This document shows, one piece after another, positions 4,032 to 29,099 of a stretch of DNA of 33,183 nucleotides (its first letter is position 1; each line of letters opens with the position of its first letter). The notes beneath the pieces are model-generated. The model searched no databases, had not been told where the DNA came from, and saw nothing but the letters and a program-made list of their open reading frames with translations. Made by a program: the position numbers and the translations under genes. The DNA is from a virus (lineage: Duplodnaviria > Caudoviricetes), in IMG/VR virus record IMGVR_UViG_3300027798_000134, positions 1 to 33,183 of that record; one strand, given 5' to 3'.

Positions 4032-5624
4032 TTACACCATTGGGCCTCTTTTGTGGATCTCAGCATCCAAACACTCACAAGTGATAATAACACCTGCAAT
4101 GCTGCATGCATTCTCCAAAGCAACCCGAACAACCTTAGCAGGATCAATAACCCCAGAGACAAATAAATCCTCGTGGTTCATTGTCTTTGCATTGTATCCT
4201 ATTGATCTTCCAGACTTAATCTCTTCAACGATAGAGTCAGCCTTGCTGTCAATACCACAGTTAGAAAGGATCTGTCTCAATGGAGCTTCCATAGCCTTCA
4301 AGATAACACCTCTTCCCAACATCTCATCTTCATTTAAAAACTCAGTAGCCTCTAAAACATTCATGCATGATAACAAGCAAGATGCTCCACCTGCAACAAT
4401 ACCTTCCTCAATGGCAGACCTTGTAGCTCTAACAGCATCGTCAACACGATCCTTCTTCTCATTCATTTCAATATCCGTAGACGCACCAACCGACATGATA
4501 GCAACACCACCAGACAATCTTGCCAATCTTCGCTTTAAACGATCAATGTCAAATTCTAACTTAGCGTTTGCTAACAACGCAGTCACCTCATCCTGGCGAA
4601 CCTTAATCGCTTCAGGAGAACCTTTACCATCAATAAATGATGTGGTCAACTCTGTTGAAACAATCTTACCACAGCTACCTAAGTGAGACATAGAAGCATT
4701 TTCAATCTTAATCCCAATAGACTCAGAGATAACAGTTGCACCCGTCAAGGTAGCGATGTCAGACAATGCCTCAGCTCTATATGCAGATGATGGTTTAATT
4801 GCAGATATTTTTAATCCTCCCTGTAACTTATTCATTGTGATGAAAGACAAACCCTCTTGAGTTAAGTCAGAACACACAATAAAGATAGGCTTGCCAGTTG
4901 GTATTGCCTTCTCTAAGATAGGAATAATTTCTTTCGATAGCGTGATGTCATGGTCAGTTACAATAACCAATGCATCCTCCATAACAACCTCCATCTTCTC
5001 TGGGTTAGTTACAAAATACTTGGAGATGTACCCCTTGTCAATTTGCATCCCATCAACAACACGAATTGTCGTTTCTGCTGTACTTGAGTCCTCGATGTCA
5101 ATAACACCTGTCTCACCAATTTTAGCGAAGGCAGAAGCGATTAAATCACCAATTTCTGAGTCATTGTTAGCGGAGATCGTTGCAACATTCTTAATCTTCT
5201 CAACATCTCCATCAATTTTCTTAGAGATAGACTTGATGTGGTTAACAACAATCGCAACAGACTTATCCATTCCTCGCTTAACATCCATTGGATTAGCGGT
5301 TCCTGAGATAGCCACAAGGCCTTCGTTGATCATACTCTGAGCCAACACAGTAGCTGTAGTTGTTCCATCACCAGCATCGTCAACAGTCTTTCTTGCAACA
5401 CCCTTGATAATTTGAGCACCAACATTTTCGATTGGATCCTCTAATTGAATTGATCTTGCAACAGACACACCATCCTTTGTTGCAGATGGCTCTGCTCCAT
5501 GATACTCACTAATAATTACGTTACGTCCCAATGGACCTAATGTCACCTTTACAGCATTTGCTACTGCATCCGAGCCAGCCTTAAGCCTCTCTCTTGCTTC
5601 CTTTCCGAAGATTATTCTTTTCAT
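4032..5624 (-). CDS. groEL: Chaperonin GroEL (Cpn60), phage-encoded
   Basis: 530 aa. AVKVTLGPLGRNV, TKDGVSVAR, AGDGTTTATVLA, RLARLSGGVA, EKKDRVDDA, EEGIVAGG, GVIDPAKV. No C-terminal GGM tail. Confidence 0.97.
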   Translation of the reverse strand: MKRIIFGKEARERLKAGSDAVANAVKVTLGPLGRNVIISEYHGAEPSATKDGVSVARSIQLEDPIENVGAQIIKGVARKTVDDAGDGTTTATVLAQSMINEGLVAISGTANPMDVKRGMDKSVAIVVNHIKSISKKIDGDVEKIKNVATISANNDSEIGDLIASAFAKIGETGVIDIEDSSTAETTIRVVDGMQIDKGYISKYFVTNPEKMEVVMEDALVIVTDHDITLSKEIIPILEKAIPTGKPIFIVCSDLTQEGLSFITMNKLQGGLKISAIKPSSAYRAEALSDIATLTGATVISESIGIKIENASMSHLGSCGKIVSTELTTSFIDGKGSPEAIKVRQDEVTALLANAKLEFDIDRLKRRLARLSGGVAIMSVGASTDIEMNEKKDRVDDAVRATRSAIEEGIVAGGASCLLSCMNVLEATEFLNEDEMLGRGVILKAMEAPLRQILSNCGIDSKADSIVEEIKSGRSIGYNAKTMNHEDLFVSGVIDPAKVVRVALENACSIAGVIITCECLDAEIHKRGPMV

Positions 5625-5642
5625 AGTTATTTATTTGTTTAA

Positions 5643-5900
5643 TTATTGAATTGCTAAAATGTCTTCCTGTTGCATAATCATATACTCCTTGCCATCAATA
5701 GATATGTCAGTTCCTCTATACTTTTGGTACAGAACAATGTCACCCACTTCTACAAGTGTTGCCTTGTCTCCCTTTGCAACGATCCTCCCAGAATATGGTT
5801 TCTCCTTTGCTGAATCAGGAAGGATTAATCCCCCTAAAGTTTTTCCTTGAGCATCATCCTGCTCAATCACTACACGATTTAATAATGGTTTTATTTTCAT
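5643..5900 (-). CDS. groES: Co-chaperonin GroES (Cpn10)
   Basis: 85 aa. MKIKPLLNRVVI, mobile loop TLGGLILPDSAKEKP, VGDIVLY, EDILAI. Confidence 0.95.
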   Translation of the reverse strand: MKIKPLLNRVVIEQDDAQGKTLGGLILPDSAKEKPYSGRIVAKGDKATLVEVGDIVLYQKYRGTDISIDGKEYMIMQQEDILAIQ

Positions 5901-6739
5901 AGAAATTTATAGTTTATATCTTCTGTTGTTAAAAATGAATACTTCTTTCCGCAATAATTTAATTCACTGGTAAGTCCATTGAAGTAGCTAACCTTTTCAC
6001 CGATAGCAACACCCTTAATATCCTCGCCAATATTGTAAACGATACCCACACGAACTCGTGGATTCTTTTGGTAATACAATCCCGATCTCACCTCAGCCTC
6101 TGTAATGTCAGCAACAAGCATCTTGTTTGTTAGGCAAGCCAGTTTCCCGTTTCTCTCAATGCCGATAATGTTTCTGAGCTGCATTCTGTAAAGGTCTGTA
6201 CCTAAAAGTTTAATGTCGTAGTCAGCATTGTTTGTAAAGAAAACAATGTCCCCCAACCTTAGTCCACTCTTCTTAGCCTGATTTGACAAGGCAAAAACTT
6301 TACCCACATTCTTTAGGTAAGCTCTCTCTGTTCTTAACAGTAGACCACTTTCTGTTCTCGTGTGCTCCTCTGGCTCAAGGACAGGCTCTACAAATATATA
6401 GTCTTCTAGTGGCTCTAACTTTGCGTTAACGATCTTAGCCCATATGTGATAGTATTCACACTTATAAAGATTTTCGTCATTATACTTTACCTCATTGTCT
6501 GGTTGGCAAACGAAGTGATGGAACACAACAACGTCTCCCGACTTAACAGGGTTATCGTTTCTGTATTCTGAATCAATTATTTGTGCATTAAACACAACCT
6601 CTCCAATTTGGGTTGCGTGATGATATTTATTAAAATCAGTATCAAGGTGTAGATTACCTCCACTGTGTCCAATAACTGAAGTGACTCTTTTAGAATCAAT
6701 ATCAGCTCGGATCAAGAATAAATCTTTGATTAGCTTCAC
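5897..6739 (-). CDS. Protein of three tandem GroES/Cpn10-like domains
   Basis: 280 aa with a GTG start, overlapping the groES start by 4 nt. Three units carry GroES hallmarks (GEVV..VKSGDVVVF; PLEDYIFV..TESGLLL..GKVFAL..LGDIVFF; RSGLYY..GIVYNIG..IGEKVSY..EDI). Confidence 0.75.
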   Translation of the reverse strand: MKLIKDLFLIRADIDSKRVTSVIGHSGGNLHLDTDFNKYHHATQIGEVVFNAQIIDSEYRNDNPVKSGDVVVFHHFVCQPDNEVKYNDENLYKCEYYHIWAKIVNAKLEPLEDYIFVEPVLEPEEHTRTESGLLLRTERAYLKNVGKVFALSNQAKKSGLRLGDIVFFTNNADYDIKLLGTDLYRMQLRNIIGIERNGKLACLTNKMLVADITEAEVRSGLYYQKNPRVRVGIVYNIGEDIKGVAIGEKVSYFNGLTSELNYCGKKYSFLTTEDINYKFL

Positions 6740-12921: not shown

Positions 12922-12955
12922 CAAATATAAATTCTTATTTAAAATGATTATAAAT
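12922..12955 (-). promoter_or_regulatory. Promoter (TATATTTG) with a 19-bp imperfect palindrome, upstream of scaffold/MCP
   Basis: ATTTAAAATGATTATAAAT at 12937-12955, at the same distance from the -7 box as in the 782 and 15599 copies. Confidence 0.7.
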
Positions 12956-12966
12956 TAGAGCTTATT

Positions 12967-15583: not shown

Positions 15584-15617
15584 CAAATATATATTTTTAT
15601 TTAGAATGATTACAAAT
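15584..15617 (-). promoter_or_regulatory. Portal promoter TTTG-N21-TATATTTG with a 19-bp imperfect palindrome
   Basis: ATTTAGAATGATTACAAAT at 15599-15617; -7 box at 15584-15591. Confidence 0.7.
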
Positions 15618-15641
15618 AGCACTCAAATAAACCCTAACAAT

Positions 15642-17457: not shown

Positions 17458-17487
17458 TGTAACCTTTTTGAATTGCCTGCGTACAAC
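17458..17487 (+). promoter_or_regulatory. ECF-sigma-type promoter TGTAACC-N15-CGTACAAC
   Basis: Same motif as the small-ORF array copies, just upstream of the resolvase ATG. Confidence 0.7.
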
Positions 17488-17505
17488 TACCCAAAAACAA
17501 TAACT

Positions 17506-18180
17506 ATGGAAACAGCAATCGCATACATCAGAGTATCAACATCGGATCAGGAAGGCTCATTAGAGGTTCAAGAAAAACAAATCCGAGAGTACGCAAGGTT
17601 TAAGGGTATCACAATCTCTAAGTTCATCATTGACGAGGATGTCTCTGGGTTCACAGAACTTTACAAGAGAAAGGGTGGCTCGGAAATTAAGGCTGAACTC
17701 AACTCGGCAAACGCAATAATTGCAATCAAGCCAGACAGATTATTCAGAAATCTAAAGGATGCACTTATCACAGTTGACGAGTGGAACAGTAACGACATTG
17801 CACTGCACATCGTTGACATGGGTGGATCATCATTCACAACTAAGACAGCAATCGGTAGACTAATGTTCTCCACAATCATTTCATTTGCTGAGTTCGAGAG
17901 AAACATCACAGGAGAAAGAACTAAGGTTGTTCTTAAGAATAAGAAGGACACAAACAAGATCTACTCAAGACCAATGCTTGGCTTTGACAATGTTGATGGG
18001 AATCTTGTTCCAAACGAGTCAGAGCAAAAGATTATCAAGACGATAAAGGATCTGTCTGTAAACCACCGTCCAACAGGCATTGCAAACATCCTTAACGATG
18101 CTGGATATAGAACAAAGAACGGTAAAATGTTTTTACAGTCAACAGTTAACTACATCATTAAAAACGAAATCTATAAATAA
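17506..18180 (+). CDS. Serine recombinase (resolvase/invertase family) with a C-terminal DNA-binding domain
   Basis: AYIRVST (catalytic Ser), DEDVSG, PDRLFRN, FAEFERNITGERT. ATG at 17506. Confidence 0.9.
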   Translation: METAIAYIRVSTSDQEGSLEVQEKQIREYARFKGITISKFIIDEDVSGFTELYKRKGGSEIKAELNSANAIIAIKPDRLFRNLKDALITVDEWNSNDIALHIVDMGGSSFTTKTAIGRLMFSTIISFAEFERNITGERTKVVLKNKKDTNKIYSRPMLGFDNVDGNLVPNESEQKIIKTIKDLSVNHRPTGIANILNDAGYRTKNGKMFLQSTVNYIIKNEIYK

Positions 18181-20053: not shown

Positions 20054-20160
20054 ATTTTTAGCTATAATGTTGGCTATTACAAACATAAAGACGCATTTTT
20101 AGCTATAATGTTGGCTATTACAAACATAAAGACGCATTTTGTTTGTAATAGCCAACATTA
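20054..20160. repeat. 41-bp tandem duplication plus a 21-bp inverted repeat
   Basis: Copies at 20054-20094 and 20095-20135. Arm 20106-20126 is the exact reverse complement of 20140-20160. Confidence 0.9.
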
Positions 20161-22383: not shown

Positions 22384-22686
22384 ATGGCAATCTTATACAG
22401 AGCGCAAGAGAATAACCCTATCGTCTTCAGAGGGAAGAAAGCAGGACTATCGAGAACAGACATTGCAAGGGCTTTAAACGTCAGTAATTTAACTCTGAGA
22501 GAATGGATACACAACCCCTATTTAATCCGCCTAGGAGATCTTTTAACCTTAGCGGGACTGTTTGGGATGTCTGTTGAAGAGCTAGTGTATATCCTAGTTA
22601 GAAACAAGCCGAATGTTGATGCTAGACTATCTAAAGAAAAAGAAGGTAAATGGTATATAGAGAGTATTAGAGAAAAGAATAAGTAA
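22384..22686 (+). CDS. XRE/Cro-like helix-turn-helix regulator
   Basis: GLSRTDIARALNVSNLTLREWI...LAGLFGMSVEEL. Confidence 0.8.
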   Translation: MAILYRAQENNPIVFRGKKAGLSRTDIARALNVSNLTLREWIHNPYLIRLGDLLTLAGLFGMSVEELVYILVRNKPNVDARLSKEKEGKWYIESIREKNK

Positions 22687-23468
22687 GATCATTAGGATGT
22701 CCCTTCGGGCAACCCGCTTTTTGTTCCAATCTCTGCCAAAAAAGGGCAGAGGATTTCCACTACAATCGGGCATATCTGCGGAATGTTTTAAGCACATTTT
22801 ACATGAGATGCAAAAGGACGTTATCGGCAAAATTGAAAAACAAGAAAAAAGGGCTGTAACGTATAATCACAAAGGGCTGGATGCTATTTTCTCGATTTTT
22901 ACCCTCTCATCTGGTAAGCATGTTTTTGGTCATTTTTGGTATTTATTCTTGAACATGACATGCAAAAAAGTCTTTATTCTTTCACGTCTATTTTAGTCTT
23001 ATTTTTTACTGTTTATCTTGTATGTTTTTTTATAGCTTTAAAGAAAGAAAAGAAGTAAGAAACAACGAGTAAGAAACTGTTAAGAAAAGAAAGAAAAGTC
23101 CCCTAGGAAAAGTAATTTTCACGCTCTAAAATAGAGCATGTGTTCGGTCCAAAAATCATCTACAATTTAAGTTTAGGCAATAAGGAACAAAGGCCATACA
23201 TTCCATGAGAACATCTGCTATACCTTGAATTCATATCGTTTATTTTTATTCATCACCTATATATATAAAAAGTAAAAGCCCTTTCCAATTTCTCGGAAGG
23301 GCTATTAATGAAAGGGCTTTACTAACAGTATACTGTTATTTTTGATGTAATACTTTAAATGCTTTTATTATCCTTCCGAGATAACAGCACAAACATACAT
23401 AAAAACATAATACGAGCATAAAAAAAGCATCATTATTTTTAAAATAAGTCAAAAAATAGTCATTTCTT

Positions 23469-23637: not shown

Positions 23638-23668
23638 TTGTGGGATTAGTATTGTCACCATATATTTG
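23638..23668 (+). promoter_or_regulatory. Bacteroidota promoter TTG-N20-TATATTTG at the head of the small-ORF array
   Basis: -7 box at 23661-23668, followed by an A-rich leader and the ATG at 23703. Confidence 0.65.
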
Positions 23669-23702: not shown

Positions 23703-23981
23703 ATGAAAACTCAAGTAACAAAATTAGAAATGGAATTATTAAATTTAATAAAACTTTATACAGAGGAACAATTTAGTAGTGATACCCCAATGTGGTGTTA
23801 TACAAATGATATAGATACAGATATGGTTATTATGAGGGGAGTTATTAGTTCACTTATTAAAAAAGGAATTATAAATACTAAATCATACCAATCTACAAAT
23901 GATGCTTTAGAAGTTGATTCAAAATATTATGAAGTAGGTGAAGATTATATTGCAAAGTTTATAACATTAGAAGTAAAATAA
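23703..23981 (+). CDS. Small protein, possible winged helix
   Basis: 92 aa. MRGVISSLIKKGII motif. Confidence 0.7.
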   Translation: MKTQVTKLEMELLNLIKLYTEEQFSSDTPMWCYTNDIDTDMVIMRGVISSLIKKGIINTKSYQSTNDALEVDSKYYEVGEDYIAKFITLEVK

Positions 23982-24036
23982 ATAACAAAGGGGAGCAGTA
24001 TCCTATCAACTGCATTAACTTTAAACACTAGAAATC

Positions 24037-24126
24037 ATGTACACAAGAAAAGAAAAATTAGTTCTAAAATTAGCAATCCTTTATGTTATCACTGCTATCT
24101 GTTTACTGTTCATTTTACGATATTAA
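24037..24126 (+). CDS. 29-aa membrane peptide (not in the ORF track)
   Basis: MYTRKEKLVLKLAILYVITAICLLFILRY with an A-rich leader. Confidence 0.55.
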   Translation: MYTRKEKLVLKLAILYVITAICLLFILRY

Positions 24127-24133
24127 AAAAAAA

Positions 24134-24163
24134 TGTAACCTTTCAAAATTATCAGCGTATAAC
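24134..24163 (+). promoter_or_regulatory. ECF-type promoter TGTAACC-N15-CGTATAAC
   Basis: Repeated motif upstream of the 24192 ORF. Confidence 0.75.
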
Positions 24164-24191
24164 GAGTATAAACAATCTAAAAACTAAAATT

Positions 24192-24428
24192 ATGGAACTA
24201 ATTAAAAAATTCAAACCGTCTCAGAAATTAACAAAAATTCAAGTAGAAGAAGCAATGAAAGAGGGAGCAATACTTTCACTGACTCGCAGCCCTTATCCTC
24301 GCTGGATTTTAACTTTTGCGGATGATACCTGCCATGAATACATTAGAAAAGATGCTACGGTGGGATTAGAAAACATTGAATTGTTTCATGTAGATAAATT
24401 TGCAGATTCTTATAGACTAAAAAAATAA
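24192..24428 (+). CDS. Small hypothetical protein
   Basis: 78 aa with its own promoter and A-rich leader. Confidence 0.7.
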   Translation: MELIKKFKPSQKLTKIQVEEAMKEGAILSLTRSPYPRWILTFADDTCHEYIRKDATVGLENIELFHVDKFADSYRLKK

Positions 24429-24429
24429 A

Positions 24430-24459
24430 TGTAACCTTTCAAAATAACATCCGTATAAC
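24430..24459 (+). promoter_or_regulatory. ECF-type promoter TGTAACC-N15-CGTATAAC
   Basis: Repeated motif upstream of the 24488 ORF. Confidence 0.75.
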
Positions 24460-24487
24460 AAGTATAAACAACTAAAACCTAAACACT

Positions 24488-24673
24488 ATGAAAAATCTAA
24501 CAGCAAAGCAAAAAATCACTAGCAACAGTCACTCCTTGAGACTCCGTAACATGATGAGTGATGAACTAAAAAAAGCGATCAGAGAGAATTTAAGTCAAGA
24601 GGTGATCACTTATTATCAGAGAGAAATTGACGAAATAAACGAGCATCTAGACAGTCTAGGCTTCAGAGATTAA
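24488..24673 (+). CDS. Small hypothetical protein
   Basis: 61 aa with an AAACACTATG leader. Confidence 0.7.
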   Translation: MKNLTAKQKITSNSHSLRLRNMMSDELKKAIRENLSQEVITYYQREIDEINEHLDSLGFRD

Positions 24674-24675
24674 AA

Positions 24676-24731
24676 AGTTAACTGATGAGTCCTGAATGGA
24701 CGAAACGAGCAGAACATCGCTCGTCTTAACT
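24676..24731 (+). ncRNA. Hammerhead ribozyme, type I
   Basis: Stem I AGTTAA/TTAACT; core CTGATGA; stem II GTCC-tgaat-GGAC; GAAA; stem III CGAGC-agaacatc-GCTCG; GTC cleavage triplet (cut after 24725). Confidence 0.93.
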
Positions 24732-24746
24732 AAAAAAATAAACACT

Positions 24747-24884
24747 ATGAAAACTGACAAGCAATTACAATTTTTTTCTAAATGGAGAAACAAATGGATA
24801 GACTTCAAAAATCCTCCGACAGCAGAAGAGATGAAAAGTTATAGAGATCATAAATATGAGATCAGAGAAAAAAAATCAAAATAA
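24747..24884 (+). CDS. Small hypothetical protein (45 aa)
   Basis: MKTDKQLQFFSKW... after AAACACTATG. The ORF-track start at 24696 falls inside the ribozyme. Confidence 0.65.
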   Translation: MKTDKQLQFFSKWRNKWIDFKNPPTAEEMKSYRDHKYEIREKKSK

Positions 24885-24885
24885 A

Positions 24886-24915
24886 TGTAACCTTAATTAA
24901 AATCCAGCGTATAAC
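24886..24915 (+). promoter_or_regulatory. ECF-type promoter TGTAACC-N15-CGTATAAC
   Basis: Repeated motif upstream of the 24933 ORF. Confidence 0.75.
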
Positions 24916-24932
24916 TAATAAAAACAAACAAC

Positions 24933-25124
24933 ATGAACGAATATAAAATTATCACACTGAGAGATGACAGCGAAAAGATCATCAAAGGTAACGAGGGCAA
25001 ATTAAGACGATACATCTTCAATAATTACAGCGGAGACATTCAAAAAATACTCCGCCACACAGTGAAGGTGACAGTGAAAGAAGAGGGCGAAAGCGAATTT
25101 AAAGACTTCAAAACTGCATGGTAA
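24933..25124 (+). CDS. Small hypothetical protein
   Basis: 63 aa with its own promoter. Confidence 0.7.
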   Translation: MNEYKIITLRDDSEKIIKGNEGKLRRYIFNNYSGDIQKILRHTVKVTVKEEGESEFKDFKTAW

Positions 25125-25141
25125 AAAAAAATCAAAATAAA

Positions 25142-25171
25142 TGTAACCTTTAAAAAATCACCCCGTATAAC
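25142..25171 (+). promoter_or_regulatory. ECF-type promoter TGTAACC-N15-CGTATAAC
   Basis: Repeated motif upstream of the 25203 ORF. Confidence 0.75.
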
Positions 25172-25202
25172 AAGTAAATTAACCACTAAAACTATAAACA
25201 CT

Positions 25203-25388
25203 ATGAAAACTGAAGACACAACAAATCCAACATTTTCCGTTACATTGATTCGCCACGAATTTGAAAAAATAAAAATTGATGTTTATAACTATAAACTTTA
25301 TAGTGAAGCAGAAGAAATCGTCAAAATAATGTATTCAGACTTTTTTAATGCAGGATGGAAAATAAAAAAAATAAAAAAAGAAATGTAA
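25203..25388 (+). CDS. Small hypothetical protein
   Basis: 61 aa. Its stop TAA lies inside the next promoter's TGTAACC. Confidence 0.7.
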   Translation: MKTEDTTNPTFSVTLIRHEFEKIKIDVYNYKLYSEAEEIVKIMYSDFFNAGWKIKKIKKEM

Positions 25389-25413
25389 CCTTTCAAAAAA
25401 TCCAGCGTATAAC
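25384..25413 (+). promoter_or_regulatory. ECF-type promoter TGTAACC-N15-CGTATAAC
   Basis: Repeated motif. The downstream GAGTATAAACAATCTAAAAA is identical to the 24134 copy. Confidence 0.75.
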
Positions 25414-25442
25414 GAGTATAAACAATCTAAAAAATAAACACT

Positions 25443-25778
25443 ATGAAAACTACAAGAGAAAAAATCGAAGCATCAATCCTGAGACAACAATACAGTCAAC
25501 GAGGAGGCGGAGTCGAAATTGACCTATCAAAATTCGGCTTCAGAGAGGGAAGCAGAATGTCAGCCTATCAAAATTATTTAGGCGGTGGAATGTTGGGAAG
25601 CATTCAGACAAACCACAACATCTTCAGGACATCATTCACTACCACTGAAGCAAAAAAATTGGAAAGAATAGCTACGGAACTAGCAAAGTATTTCCACGAT
25701 CTAACTAATCACGAGGACGATGAATGGGAGTCCGCATCCTTCGAAGAAAATCAAAACAGACCTTCATCTGCATACTAA
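25443..25778 (+). CDS. Hypothetical protein
   Basis: 111 aa. AYQNYLGGGMLG motif and an acidic tail. Confidence 0.75.
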   Translation: MKTTREKIEASILRQQYSQRGGGVEIDLSKFGFREGSRMSAYQNYLGGGMLGSIQTNHNIFRTSFTTTEAKKLERIATELAKYFHDLTNHEDDEWESASFEENQNRPSSAY

Positions 25779-25798
25779 CTTTAAAAACTATAAAAATT

Positions 25799-26104
25799 AT
25801 GAAAACAAAAAATCAATATCAAGATGGGAATTATTCATTCGAAAACAAATACAGCTATGCTCGTAAAAATATAAAGAATGACCATGTAAAATTAAAGGAT
25901 GGTACATTAGTTCATGTAGATGAATTCGTTAAAAAAAATAACTTCAGCAGTTTTAAATTTGAATTAATAAACGAAAAAATTCAGAACATTGATGAAGCAT
26001 TAAAACAAGCCCTAGAAACGGTTGAAAGTCTGCCCGACCAACAGAAGCACCTTGACGCTAGGTATTGGTTATTAAAACGCATAAAAGAGGCAGAAAAAGG
26101 TTAA
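25799..26104 (+). CDS. Hypothetical protein
   Basis: ATG at 25799 after an A-rich leader. The stop TAA is part of hammerhead stem I. Confidence 0.7.
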   Translation: MKTKNQYQDGNYSFENKYSYARKNIKNDHVKLKDGTLVHVDEFVKKNNFSSFKFELINEKIQNIDEALKQALETVESLPDQQKHLDARYWLLKRIKEAEKG

Positions 26105-26148
26105 CTGAAGAGGATTCAATATCCGAAACGCTGTGAAGCGTCTTAACC
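26099..26148 (+). ncRNA. Hammerhead ribozyme, type I
   Basis: Stem I GGTTAA/TTAACC; core CTGAAGA; stem II GGAT-tcaat-ATCC; GAAA; stem III CGCT-gtga-AGCG; GTC triplet (cut after 26142). Confidence 0.92.
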
Positions 26149-26165
26149 AAATAAAAAAAAACACT

Positions 26166-26411
26166 ATGAAAAATTCAAATTTCAACAGAAGATTCACCGT
26201 TCAGATCAGTGAACAAGGTACTACATGTTCAGTAAAAAATGTAACAGTAGAAAGGCTGACAGAGAAAAGAGACAGCGAATACGAGTGGATTTATTCTATT
26301 CAATCTGATTATCTAGATCAAATTCTCGATCTGAAGGTAGGAGAAAACATTTTCTTTCAACCGAATAGAGATGACAGTAAAAGTAAAGGGATCATAACAA
26401 GAATCTCTTAG
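26166..26411 (+). CDS. Hypothetical protein
   Basis: MKNSNFNRRF... after AAACACTATG. The ORF-track start at 26133 falls inside the ribozyme. Confidence 0.7.
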   Translation: MKNSNFNRRFTVQISEQGTTCSVKNVTVERLTEKRDSEYEWIYSIQSDYLDQILDLKVGENIFFQPNRDDSKSKGIITRIS

Positions 26412-26452
26412 TAACTAATAAAGAACGACTAACTAACTTAAAAAAAAACACT

Positions 26453-26572
26453 ATGAAAAAGCTATTGAAACGTATCCAAAAAATGTTTGCATCTGACAAA
26501 CAAGCAACACAAACAAGCCTCGAAAAAGAGTATATGAAGTATGAACGGTTTGCAAGGGTGGTGTTTGTATAA
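26453..26572 (+). CDS. 39-aa hypothetical protein (not in the ORF track)
   Basis: MKKLLKRIQKMFASDK...VVFV, after the partial repeat and AAACACTATG. Confidence 0.6.
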   Translation: MKKLLKRIQKMFASDKQATQTSLEKEYMKYERFARVVFV

Positions 26573-26626
26573 ACACCCCCGACATTAACTGAGAACGACT
26601 AACTAACTTTAAAAAAAAATACTACC

Positions 26627-26926
26627 ATGAGCGAAGAAATTAAAAAATTATTGCAAGGAATTCTGAAGCAATACATTGTCCATAACAACATAAAATTGGA
26701 GGACGCATGCATACTAAATGTCCGCTACAAAGAAAAAGGTTTTGAATATTTACAAGCCATTCAGAACGTAGTTAAAAAAGATGTCGAAAGTGCATCCCTA
26801 GGACTAAACACAAAACGGATGACACAATTACAGCAGAGAGCATTTAATACATCCTTGACGCATGGTTTAACGAAGTTAGCGGAGTATATGGTGACGGGAA
26901 GAGAGACAATAAACGAAATTAAATAA
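26627..26926 (+). CDS. Hypothetical protein
   Basis: 99 aa after a 21-bp repeat. Confidence 0.7.
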   Translation: MSEEIKKLLQGILKQYIVHNNIKLEDACILNVRYKEKGFEYLQAIQNVVKKDVESASLGLNTKRMTQLQQRAFNTSLTHGLTKLAEYMVTGRETINEIK

Positions 26927-26945
26927 ACACTAAAAAATAAACACT

Positions 26946-27113
26946 ATGAAAACATACACATTTAATCTAGAAAGTAAATTAGGAACTATAGACTCAATTA
27001 CTTTGTCGGGACCAAATAGAAGGTCAGCAAAACAATTTGCTAAATTTCTTCTCTACAAAAGGTTTAAACATAACTTTCCATCGGGAAATATTAAGACAAC
27101 GTACATTGTTTAA
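26946..27113 (+). CDS. 55-aa hypothetical protein (not in the ORF track)
   Basis: MKTYTFNLESKLG...TTYIV with an AAACACTATG leader. Confidence 0.6.
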   Translation: MKTYTFNLESKLGTIDSITLSGPNRRSAKQFAKFLLYKRFKHNFPSGNIKTTYIV

Positions 27114-27173
27114 AAAAGCCAAGGTAAACGAACATTAACTGAGAACGACTAACTAACTTAAAAAAATACTACC

Positions 27174-27425
27174 ATGAAAACAGAAATTAATTTTAACAAC
27201 AAAAATTGCGGATTTACTTTTGACCTAGAGGCAAAGGAAATTAACGGTTGGGACTTTACAGACAAGTATAACGATGTGAAGTGTTACAATAAGACAAGCA
27301 GATCGATCAAAAAAGCCTTAGCTAATTTGCAAAAGGAATTTAACGATGACCTATCAATGTATCAAGTGATGGACATTATCAGAAATTCGGGAGTAAAAAT
27401 GCGTTCCTACTGCGGGATGGATTAA
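27174..27425 (+). CDS. Hypothetical protein
   Basis: 83 aa after a 21-bp repeat. Confidence 0.7.
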   Translation: MKTEINFNNKNCGFTFDLEAKEINGWDFTDKYNDVKCYNKTSRSIKKALANLQKEFNDDLSMYQVMDIIRNSGVKMRSYCGMD

Positions 27426-27481
27426 ACAGCCAAGGTAAACGAACACTAACTGAGAACGACTAACTAAAACTAAAAAAAACT

Positions 27482-27646
27482 ATGAAAACTTTCAAGACAA
27501 TAGAACAAGCAGTTTCTTACATCAAAAATCTAAAGGGAAAAACTGTGGGAGACATCCTCTCCATAAAGTCAGAACTAATTAAAAAGAAGCTAACTAAGGT
27601 AAAGGGAACGTATATTTTTATAGATGAGTTTGACCTCCTCGCATAA
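27482..27646 (+). CDS. 54-aa hypothetical protein (not in the ORF track)
   Basis: MKTFKTIEQAVSYIKNL...DLLA after a 21-bp repeat. Confidence 0.6.
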   Translation: MKTFKTIEQAVSYIKNLKGKTVGDILSIKSELIKKKLTKVKGTYIFIDEFDLLA

Positions 27647-27672
27647 AAAAAATAAAAATAAAACAAAAAAAA

Positions 27673-27702
27673 CGTAACCTTTTTGAAAAGTATACGTACA
27701 AG
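27673..27702 (+). promoter_or_regulatory. ECF-type promoter CGTAACC-N15-CGTACAAG
   Basis: Variant copy followed 5 nt later by the 21-bp repeat. Confidence 0.65.
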
Positions 27703-27741
27703 GACTATAACTGAGAACGACTAACTAAAAAAACTAAAATT

Positions 27742-28110
27742 ATGAACACAAAACAATCAATCACAAAGCTAGCAATTGAGAAAATTGCAAAAGAGAATCC
27801 AGCAGGATTTACCATCAACAAGAAGACCTTACAACCTATTTTGAAAGGATATGCTGTAGCTATTTTAGAGACGCAAGATAGTTTTGGGAGCGAGGGTTTA
27901 GATAAGGTAATGGAGTTTGCAAAGCCATCATTTGTGGATGCATACGGAGGGTGGCTGAACGAAAAAAACGGGGAGTATTACTACGATGCGGTGATGGTTC
28001 TTGATGACTTAAGGACTGCATTATTTTTAGGGTTCCGTAACAAACAAATAGCTATATTTGACCTTGAAAAAGGGAAGGAAATAAAATTGCTGAAGGAAGA
28101 TATTGTTTAA
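27742..28110 (+). CDS. Hypothetical phage protein
   Basis: 122 aa. GFT, GYAVA, GGWL..YYYD and QIAIFDL motifs. Confidence 0.75.
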   Translation: MNTKQSITKLAIEKIAKENPAGFTINKKTLQPILKGYAVAILETQDSFGSEGLDKVMEFAKPSFVDAYGGWLNEKNGEYYYDAVMVLDDLRTALFLGFRNKQIAIFDLEKGKEIKLLKEDIV

Positions 28111-28182
28111 AAAATTAGGGGCGGAGTTTAGTAGTGTTTTCTCCGTCCCCCCGAAAGGGCAAACAAAAATACACACAAATAT

Positions 28183-28416
28183 ATGGAACCAAAGATCGAA
28201 TACATTACAATAGACTTTATGCTGTTTAACAAGGTTTTCTCGGGAGAGAACATCTACCAAGATCAAGAGGTAGCAATACGAGAGGCAAAGTTACTGAAGG
28301 CGGAGTTTGAGGTGGCGGGACTATACCCTTCCATAAGCATAGTCTTCAGCTACGAGGATGGGGAAATAACAGCATGGGACTTGGATTTATTAACATACAT
28401 GAGGAACACTAACTAA
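28183..28416 (+). CDS. Small acidic hypothetical protein
   Basis: 77 aa with an A-rich leader. Confidence 0.65.
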   Translation: MEPKIEYITIDFMLFNKVFSGENIYQDQEVAIREAKLLKAEFEVAGLYPSISIVFSYEDGEITAWDLDLLTYMRNTN

Positions 28417-28434
28417 CACTAAAAAATAAACACT

Positions 28435-28659
28435 ATGAAAAACGCAAAAGAACGCTTTGAAGAGATTAAAAAATTAATTGACTGTGATATGATTCCCGAG
28501 GGATGCGAAATGCGTCTATGGATTAATAACTGCACAAGAAAAGAACTTCTTACCCTTGGTGCTGAACTAGAAATTCTTTGCGAGGAAAGAAGCGATAGCA
28601 ATCCAAAGATTCATCTCTATATTGAATACAAAGGTCACGACATTTATATGTGGGAATAA
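28435..28659 (+). CDS. Small hypothetical protein
   Basis: 74 aa with an AAACACTATG leader. Confidence 0.7.
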   Translation: MKNAKERFEEIKKLIDCDMIPEGCEMRLWINNCTRKELLTLGAELEILCEERSDSNPKIHLYIEYKGHDIYMWE

Positions 28660-28788
28660 AGATGCCTAGAAAAGTTTTAAAGGTTGATTGGGGAAAACTG
28701 CTCATGCGGAAGAGGAGGTTAAAAGCCGAAGTAATGCCAATCATAAAATCAGATGTCCACACACCCATCTTCTGCTTTCCTATTTTAT

Positions 28789-28877
28789 GACCAAATGGCG
28801 GAATGGTAGACGCATAATACTAAATGAGAGTGAGCTGATCCGATCTCTTATTGCAGGTTCGATTCCTGCTTTGGTCA
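28789..28877 (+). ncRNA. tRNA-like RNA lacking a pairable anticodon arm
   Basis: Acceptor GACCAAA/TTTGGTC plus A. Leu-type D arm TGGCGGAATGGTAGACGC. T arm GCAGG-TTCGATT-CCTGC. The middle segment has no anticodon stem but forms AATGAGAG/CTCTTATT. Confidence 0.8.
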
Positions 28878-28913
28878 CCGAACATTAACTGAGAACGACT
28901 AACTAAAGAAACT

Positions 28914-29066
28914 ATGAAGCTATTTAATTTAGAACTCGCAAGGGGAAAATTCTCCAAGGAGGTTGTTGCAAGGTGCGTCCCATACGCAATTGCAGTAAGT
29001 AAGAAGAAGCAACTAATTTCCAACGGAACTATTCCGAGGAACATTTGGATCGTTGCTGTAAAATAA
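28914..29066 (+). CDS. 50-aa hypothetical protein (not in the ORF track)
   Basis: MKLFNLELARGKF...VAVK after a 21-bp repeat. Confidence 0.55.
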   Translation: MKLFNLELARGKFSKEVVARCVPYAIAVSKKKQLISNGTIPRNIWIVAVK

Positions 29067-29068
29067 AG

Positions 29069-29099
29069 TTTGTATTTTAAAACAATTTAATTATATTTG
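29069..29099 (+). promoter_or_regulatory. Bacteroidota promoter TTTG-N19-TATATTTG
   Basis: Exact consensus at the head of the replication-side operon. Confidence 0.8.

Follow-up and report, generated by a model that had tools for sequence, protein, structure and literature searches.

A variable array of small genes in a phage genome fragment, with junctions that probably hold interchangeable transcription-start and RNA-cleavage signals

In the T4-type phages RB49 and phi1, PeSL cassettes shuffle ORFans within hyperplastic regions of the genome (PMC2839356, Arbiol et al. 2010), and in certain prophages clustered hammerhead ribozymes flank single variable genes, an arrangement for which the processing of transcripts to gene-length mRNA has been proposed (PMC3088659, Perreault et al. 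2011). The purpose for which phages place self-cleaving ribozymes between genes has been called open (PMC6765202). The locus described here, positions 23703 to 29066 of a virus record of 33,183 bases (IMGVR_UViG_3300027798_000134; hereafter the window, meaning this whole stretch, itself a fragment of a genome), has features of both. It is an array of small open reading frames (ORFs) that is probably a variable accessory-gene region, the gaps of which hold interchangeable signals predicted to restart transcription or to cut RNA. Its components, including promoter motifs of the extracytoplasmic function (ECF) type, hammerheads, a 21-base repeat (the 21-mer) and a structured RNA designated RNA X, are as follows.

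23661..23668, + strand: Bacteroidota housekeeping-type -7 box, TAnnTTTG, in front of the array's first gene; a putative promoter, with the consensus taken from PMC7366714
23703..29066, + strand: 19 small ATG ORFs of 29-122 amino acids from the ORF listing, with no named function, starting at 23703, 24037, 24192, 24488, 24747, 24933, 25203, 25443, 25799, 26166, 26453, 26627, 26946, 27174, 27482, 27742, 28183, 28435 and 28914
24135..24162, + strand: ECF-type promoter motif, copy 1 (pattern match)
24431..24458, + strand: ECF-type promoter motif, copy 2 (pattern match)
24676..24731, + strand: HH1, type I hammerhead, predicted to cut after 24725, 21 nucleotides (nt) before the ATG at 24747
24887..24914, + strand: ECF-type promoter motif, copy 3 (pattern match)
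25143..25170, + strand: ECF-type promoter motif, copy 4 (pattern match)
25385..25412, + strand: ECF-type promoter motif, copy 5 (pattern match)
25443..25778, + strand: ORF 25443, 111 amino acids, member of a large unnamed family with 759 relatives
26099..26148, + strand: HH2, type I hammerhead, predicted to cut after 26142, 23 nt before the ATG at 26166, with the upstream stop codon in stem I
26416..26436, + strand: 21-mer, partial, with 3 mismatches
26586..26606, + strand: 21-mer, copy 1
27136..27156, + strand: 21-mer, copy 2
27447..27467, + strand: 21-mer, copy 3
27674..27701, + strand: ECF-type promoter motif, copy 6 (pattern match)
27708..27728, + strand: 21-mer, copy 4, starting 6 nt past promoter motif 6, at about the inferred transcript start
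27742..28110, + strand: ORF 27742, 122 amino acids, predicted structure with a confidence (pLDDT) of 92.7 and a fold common to uncharacterised phage proteins
28118..28150, + strand: GC hairpin, its 14-nt loop kept in two relatives and its stem sequence different in one
28681..28781, + strand: RNA X, an unclassified structured RNA of 101 nt, with a three-way junction, a variable insert and a near-invariant 17-nt loop
28789..28877, + strand: tRNA-like RNA, 43 bits on the Rfam tRNA model, with acceptor, D and T arms intact
28886..28906, + strand: 21-mer, copy 5
29069..29099, + strand: housekeeping-type promoter (TTTG, then TAnnTTTG) closing the array, a junction type kept in two relatives (L221 and L223)

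An earlier, sequence-only reading of the window had counted about 20 ORFs of this size. Nineteen of them are confirmed, but the twentieth (28662-28790, 42 amino acids) is probably no gene, the stretch being better explained by the overlapping RNA X, which lies just 5' of the tRNA-like RNA and which that reading had missed. The six ECF-type promoters, two hammerheads, five full and one partial 21-mers and the tRNA-like RNA that it listed were all found again. Its statement that most junctions carry an element holds for 14 of the 18, which comprise five with a promoter alone, one with promoter and 21-mer, two with a hammerhead, four with a 21-mer (one of these partial), one with RNA X, tRNA-like RNA and 21-mer together, and one with the GC hairpin. 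The other four are bare leaders, and the stronger claim, that each cassette receives its own 5' end, is not supported. Together the junctions make up 1182 of the 5364 array bases (22%), and the array as a whole is bracketed by the two housekeeping-type -7 boxes. A terminator-like site was not found on the + strand, and a U-run follows the GC hairpin only in L223.

Comparison with relatives carries the reading of the array as a variable region. A metagenome scan with the 21-mer recovered five independent, close relatives (L223, with L224 and L225; L218; L221; L222; and L226), the near-identical copies of the window not being counted (L001, L002, L010, L011, L100, L193, L201, L212, L214-L217, L219, L220, L231 and L372). 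All five differ from the window in gene content and order, genes having been gained, lost and reordered at junctions, and gene order among relatives is not invariant. The same 40-amino-acid C-terminal segment with its hammerhead is followed by a different gene in each of three genomes, those of the window, L223 and L218. Conversely, one and the same gene may stand behind different elements: ORF 25443 lies behind a promoter in the window and behind a hammerhead in L223; ORFs 27174 and 26627 lie behind the 21-mer in the window and behind a hammerhead in L223 and L218; ORF 24747 lies behind a hammerhead in the window and behind the 21-mer in L226; and ORF 28435 follows a bare leader or a promoter, depending on the genome. 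The replacement of promoter by hammerhead before the same gene is comparative evidence, drawn from sequence, that both would supply a fresh 5' end, and this exchange bears on the question of why phages keep ribozymes between their genes. Where both neighbouring genes are kept, the element type is kept as well (13 of 13 pairs). The proposal that elements always travel with the upstream gene was rejected, the type being kept in 10 of 20 pairs sharing the upstream gene and 9 of 19 sharing the downstream gene, pairs that are not independent, and no polarity rule held among the junction pairs compared. The window ORF at 25799-26104 (101 amino acids) is the fused form of two ORFs of 60 and 40 amino acids that in L218 have leaders of their own. 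ORFs 25443 and 27742 occur in distant phages without these junction elements, and the genes therefore come from a wide pool. In an RNA run, one contig of depth 2 joins 26942 to 27171, leader to leader, omitting one gene and its 21-mer, which is at most a weak hint.

The promoter motif, GTAACC-N15-CGTAHAA, occurs six times in the array and once more at 17459, against a chance mean of 0.02. The ECF promoter consensus combines a -35 box containing AAC with a -10 box containing CGT at a fixed spacing, and the motif shows all three features. A strict scan of bacterial genomes returned at least 120 stretches, and the counts that follow concern the 80 listed (L233-L312). Among these listed matches, 59 of 80 belong to Bacteroidota by record title and lie outside open frames in 54 of the 59 Bacteroidota cases, as against 9 of the 21 others; the motif precedes rpoD-type sigma genes 16 times, queA 11 times and porP-family genes 8 times, as counted by N-terminal motifs and borne out in the examples checked, and one host copy (L233) precedes an ECF sigma gene. 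From its sequence context the motif thus looks like a conserved host promoter class of Bacteroidota, and the earlier description of it as an ECF-type promoter is borne out as a real host-type signal, intergenic before rpoD, queA and porP-family genes. It is repeated in other viral contigs, with up to 20 copies in 11 kb, and a motif that stands ahead of such genes across Bacteroidota and so densely in phage DNA may be of specialist interest. Five records that have the helicase or individual array genes in common with the window lack the motif, and sigma70 matches are at chance level (21 against 20.2 expected). A second promoter motif, PM2, has been reported for Bacteroides thetaiotaomicron (PMC7366714), and PMC7826278 yielded no mention of the motif described here. 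A looser, eighth copy lies at about 7975 (- strand), before an amidase-like gene. The seventh is the following.

17459: seventh promoter motif, directly before a short (235-amino-acid) serine recombinase gene (window 17459-18180)

Both array hammerheads are intact by sequence and predicted to self-cut. A strict hammerhead parser run over 1.24 million bases of loci gave nine candidates, eight of them in the window lineage (two in the window, four in L223, one each in L218 and L226) and one weak candidate elsewhere. All eight copies in the window and its relatives have the core CUGANGA, GAAA and UH with three stems and an open stem I (stem I of 6 base pairs, bp; stem II of 4-5 bp; stem III of 5-7 bp), and in all eight the ATG lies 20-25 nt past the predicted cut. 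In stem II, three of four pairs are changed on both sides with pairing kept at 100%, and stem III occurs in three different sequences, all paired; the two hammerheads of the earlier reading are thus upheld by their cores and by covariation. An upstream stop codon lies in the ribozyme 5' arm or core, or no more than three bases from it, in all eight copies, a placement that makes coupling of the ribozyme to translation possible.

Cultured phages offer a further point of comparison. The Elemovirus phages of Flavobacterium sp. BAL314 (for example NC_055854) resemble the window in a related terminase (37% identity, the best listed for the window protein among cultured phages), in GroEL/GroES genes, in an array of about 22 small ORFs with two hammerheads, and in the gain and loss of genes at the leader and ATG. 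The two hammerheads of elemoE (NC_055854) are an unannotated type III ribozyme (L353:18097-18153, - strand; 36.3 bits in Rfam) and a type I ribozyme at about L353:16304-16361 (- strand) within the small-gene array, the stem II of which carries compensating changes in elemoB and elemoC; in elemoF this stem has a chimeric, broken look. These phages differ from the window in that no copy of the promoter motif occurs in the 32 kb of elemo DNA examined, one hammerhead is of type III, and the window's array has no blastn match to cultured phages; ORF 25443 likewise has no match there. With two such hammerheads in culturable phages, a role in making 5' ends becomes testable at the bench.

How the genes were exchanged can be approached through the ends of the homology blocks. 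Between the window and L223 there are 14 such ends, of which eight lie at a leader and ATG, three in A-runs, one at the fusion point and two in diverged ORF tails, so that 11 of the 14 fall in junctions. The claim of the sequence-only reading that shared junction sequences allow cassette exchange is accordingly half sustained: genes are gained and lost at junctions, but most of the visible crossovers fall at ordinary translation starts or in A-runs rather than in the elements that it named. By these alignments, short homology is likely to have served for recombination, though this is not proven, because selection for intact genes also concentrates surviving breakpoints at gene borders. A stronger form of the idea, in which the junction elements are mainly recombination joints of the PeSL kind, kept for gene swapping with any effect on RNA secondary, finds some encouragement in single cases. 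In L222 two promoter copies enclose a 95-amino-acid gene at a place with a single copy in the window (a promoter-flanked indel seen once); L223 and L226 show an apparent crossover inside the hammerhead; homology between L218 and L222 begins at the 21-mer; and hammerhead and 21-mer both contain the heptamer TAACTGA. Crossovers inside elements may moreover be undercounted, being partly hidden by homology. Even so, that form is quite improbable, since most visible breakpoints lie at the leader and ATG and the four elemo isolates compared differ mainly at leaders and ATGs, away from any special element; the elemo phages thus swap genes at bare leaders, and the elements are therefore not required for swapping. 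The compensation in stem II and the differing sequences of stem III preserve structure rather than sequence identity and point to selection on RNA function. An integron-like, site-specific system, in which the serine recombinase encoded at 17473-18180 would exchange cassettes at the 21-mer or the shared heptamer, is more remote still and may be regarded as highly improbable; the window does hold a resolvase/recombinase gene under the seventh promoter motif, and the 21-mer is oriented and nearly invariant, but breakpoints fall at no single fixed base or element, genes without a flanking 21-mer also move, and the 21-mer has no dyad symmetry. The array thus has neither the one fixed crossover point nor the symmetric site by which integrons are recognised.

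The 21-mer, found in five exact copies and one with three mismatches in the array (chance mean 0.01), is most likely a site, particular to this lineage, that a phage protein would bind where transcripts start or close by, with a second promoter class and an RNA leader signal as close rivals for this putative role. Across six genomes there are 19 copies or variants, all in the sense orientation; in 17 cases an ATG follows at a distance of 28-41 nt. As a second promoter class, whether ECF-like with CGAC as its -10 box or read by a phage sigma factor, the 21-mer would give nearly every cassette its own start; this orientation and placement, the A(A/C)C that in about half of the copies precedes CGAC by 16 nt (a spacing equal to that in the promoter motif) and the filling of the same slots as promoters and hammerheads would all suit such a role, which nevertheless appears unlikely. 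Two copies have GTAC in place of CGAC and one is without CGAC, all of them still with TAACTGAGAA; in three cases the 21-mer follows immediately on a complete promoter motif, so that another promoter there would be superfluous; and an invariant spacer is unusual for ECF promoters. The 21-mer may bear a likeness to T7-type promoters. The 21-mer as ribozyme or hairpin was rejected, no stable fold being found (z -0.5 to +1.4). In the viral contigs scanned, it was not found in a like context outside the lineage, and 11 single matches to its 15-nt core in other viral contigs, without the leader context, look like chance.

RNA X and the tRNA-like RNA form the most complex junction. Window positions 28679-28786 share 86% identity with DNA that precedes a tRNA-Cys in L207. 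A first search pattern for RNA X, which returned the window's twin, two copies from one relative and a chance match in a DnaB-like gene, was set aside; the second gave 28 matches, of which eight were unrelated and dropped and 20 are homologues, amounting to 14 distinct sequences of 73-158 nt. Most homologues lie directly 5' of a tRNA or tRNA-like RNA and some before a leader and ATG. Their alignment supports a three-way junction whose 18 pairs form in 99.6% of cells. Both sides have changed in four of the pairs, a number reached by 3 of 500 shuffles, while slid controls show no such pair; the sequences are related, and these counts are not to be read as probabilities. The structure rests on the alignment; the window's own copy does not fold into the family structure by minimum free energy (MFE; z +1.7) and has the one broken pair in it. 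Rfam gave no relevant match to RNA X at E<=1 in the window or at E<=10 for 28600-28800, and neither RNA X nor the 21-mer has a match in six supplement files of PMC10690425, in which candidate tRNA-like RNAs of phages are reported (three other files, including the two largest, may hold RNA X). A covarying RNA family that adjoins phage tRNAs and falls in no known class may be of specialist interest in its own right.

The tRNA-like RNA keeps the conserved loops of D and T arms seen in decoding tRNA but has no canonical anticodon arm: the anticodon stem assigned by ARAGORN pairs at three of five positions, and the MFE fold places an 8-bp hairpin there, so that the 5-bp stem and 7-nt loop of a decoding tRNA are absent. 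In L221 it has a different interior and a compensated T stem, in L222 a remnant is left, and it is absent at the junction in L223 and L218. Other loci with promoter arrays have similar RNAs in which the anticodon region is enlarged. In two of these (L029:6100-6770 and L039:6000-6580, both - strand) the D and T arms are intact and long inserts replace the anticodon arm, and one of them starts just after a promoter motif. L039 also has an abiF RNA match above the Rfam gathering score (40.5 bits; 5891-5926, - strand) just upstream of the promoter motif in a phage array, adjoining tRNA-like RNAs, which may be an antitoxin mimic. The unit of RNA X and tRNA-like RNA looks, by sequence, like a piece taken from a phage tRNA cluster. 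Such clusters, as in T4 and T5, contain stable RNAs of unassigned role. Both parts resemble pieces of clusters in other viral contigs; here, in contrast, a single unit stands inside an array of protein genes, and RNA X has no Rfam family.

Under the reading preferred here, of a variable accessory-gene region with interchangeable signals in its gaps, the host RNA polymerase would read the array from left to right in the absence of an intrinsic terminator and, through an alternative sigma factor conserved in Bacteroidota, would be loaded afresh six times. Cleavage by the hammerheads would divide the long transcript and leave unstructured leaders of 20-25 nt suited to initiation without a Shine-Dalgarno (SD) sequence; RNase P/Z would probably cut at the tRNA-like RNA; and the 21-mer, on or beside the points where transcripts begin, would be bound by a phage protein. 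Genes would be swapped when short stretches of similar sequence recombine, mostly leaders with their ATG and at times the elements themselves, with selection keeping whole genes. A bolder version casts the array as a plug-and-play kit of makers of mRNA 5' ends, consisting of a hijacked alternative-sigma promoter common to Bacteroidota and also placed before host rpoD, hammerheads whose folding would be gated by a ribosome that halts on their 5' arm, a phage-specific 21-mer start or processing signal, and RNA X working with tRNA-like RNAs as a new processing or catalytic class. Such a kit seems rather improbable; were it real, recombination at translation starts would re-deal genes and their mode of expression together.

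Several observations weigh against the preferred reading. HH1 scores 30.7 bits on the Rfam model Hammerhead_1 (RF00163), under the gathering score of 34, which a sister copy passes (L223:3811-3860; 34.3 bits), and HH2 is absent from the Rfam matches at E<=1, yet folds as a hammerhead with a full core. Tertiary contacts for fast cleavage were not identified in these ribozymes. A hammerhead core match was found in none of six other promoter-array loci checked, so that arrays of this kind do not depend on cleavage. The 21-mer has no structure and is confined to one lineage. Selection by itself would also be expected to leave breakpoints at the borders of genes. The sigma factor may be encoded by the phage, the window being a fragment of a genome; a 148-kb viral record (G002) has dozens of promoter copies and encodes two ECF-size sigma factors inside its array (C1:107508-107714 and 110748-110942; L227 and L228). 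The RNA run, finally, consists of sparse contigs covering 7% of words, which cannot show transcript ends or strand.

What the array proteins do is a separate matter, and host interaction is a guess from their position and turnover. Pfam has no family for any of the 19; PHROG gave four weak matches (E 0.003-0.009) and PADLOC one (E 0.009); a sequence search of the PDB returned nothing below E 0.01; and in the Atlas the proteins fall in unnamed or low-score clusters. ORF 25443 folds confidently and matches only uncharacterised phage proteins. ORF 27742 has no Foldseek match in the PDB at E<=0.001 and bears a weak likeness, by its modelled structure, to phage S-adenosylmethionine (SAM) lyases, the group of T3 SAMH and Svi3-3 (one match at Z 3.5, root-mean-square deviation 3.8 over 81 aligned residues, and one at Z 2.7). 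That the region is an anti-defence or host-takeover island, with proteins that block host immunity, is conceivable, though held at less than even confidence. The position, small size and fast turnover of the genes are typical of such islands, weak structural matches of ORF 27742 to SAM lyases point the same way, and an ardA gene lies among tandem hammerheads in PMC3088659; set against this, the SAM lyase scores are not above those of unrelated proteins (best Z 4.1, none reaching 5), and no Pfam, PHROG or PADLOC match names such a function. The host-takeover or anti-defence label that the region had been given is for these reasons not supported, the predicted structures having matched only uncharacterised proteins. 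The proposal is compatible with the best explanation offered here, as it concerns gene function only.

The wider window encodes a terminase, a portal, an SU10-type capsid protein, GroEL/GroES, the serine recombinase, a helix-turn-helix (HTH) protein and a primase/helicase-like protein, as assigned by PHROG and Pfam searches. Matches to its terminase among cultured phages are records of Flavobacterium, Cellulophaga, Tenacibaculum or Maribacter phages in 86 of 87 cases, and one further feature points in the same direction.

22706-22777, - strand: Flavo-1 RNA, 52.4 bits in Rfam, just downstream of an HTH gene (22384-22686)

GGAG is absent from the leaders of the 19 array genes and of the 31 other window genes alike. 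On the terminase matches, the Flavo-1 RNA and the leaders without GGAG, we infer a likely Bacteroidota host. Elsewhere in the window, GroEL and two GroES-domain genes lie at 4032-6739, as in elemo phages; a direct repeat of about 41 nt followed by an inverted copy (24-nt arms, 96% complementary) lies between convergent genes at 20065-20160; and a motif of about 38 nt, repeated at 767-807, 12922-12962 and 15584-15624 with a -7 box on the - strand before structural genes, is a candidate late promoter.

Set beside described systems, the A-rich leader with A at -3 is an ordinary Bacteroidota translation start. The initiation region of this phylum has no SD sequence, A at -3 and an unstructured leader (PMC6847099, Baez et al. 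2019), and the array leaders share all three features, with A at -3 in 18 of 19 array genes as against 18 of the 31 others in the window. They differ from that general pattern in being more alike than the window's other leaders, with a mean pairwise identity of 0.61 against 0.45 and 29 of 171 pairs at least 75% identical, compared with 4 of 465.

With PeSL cassettes (PMC2839356) the array shares repeated host-type promoters before ORFans in a variable region, a gene that lies between two copies in one phage where a relative has a single copy (here the one case of L222), and a crossover proposed to fall in an AT-rich stretch. It departs from them in that its promoter is of ECF type rather than sigma70, in having no terminator stem-loop and no SD sequence, and in that four or more types of element, ribozymes included, share a slot; on stem-loop, sigma70 and SD features it falls outside the PeSL class. 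As with the hammerheads of prophages (PMC3088659), several ribozymes flank variable genes and lie shortly before a start codon, but here the predicted hammerheads alternate with promoters, 21-mers, the tRNA-like RNA and RNA X, and among relatives a hammerhead stands in for a promoter or a 21-mer ahead of one and the same gene. The open-access literature searched gave no description of this mix of elements, of the promoter motif or of the elemo-phage hammerheads; with hammerhead-flanked prophage genes and promoter cassettes both published, the suggestion that the combination is not a described system was nonetheless overstated. By analogy, the array would work like a blend of PeSL cassettes and hammerhead-flanked prophage genes, and it represents, in a richer form, a kind of variable region already known from phages.

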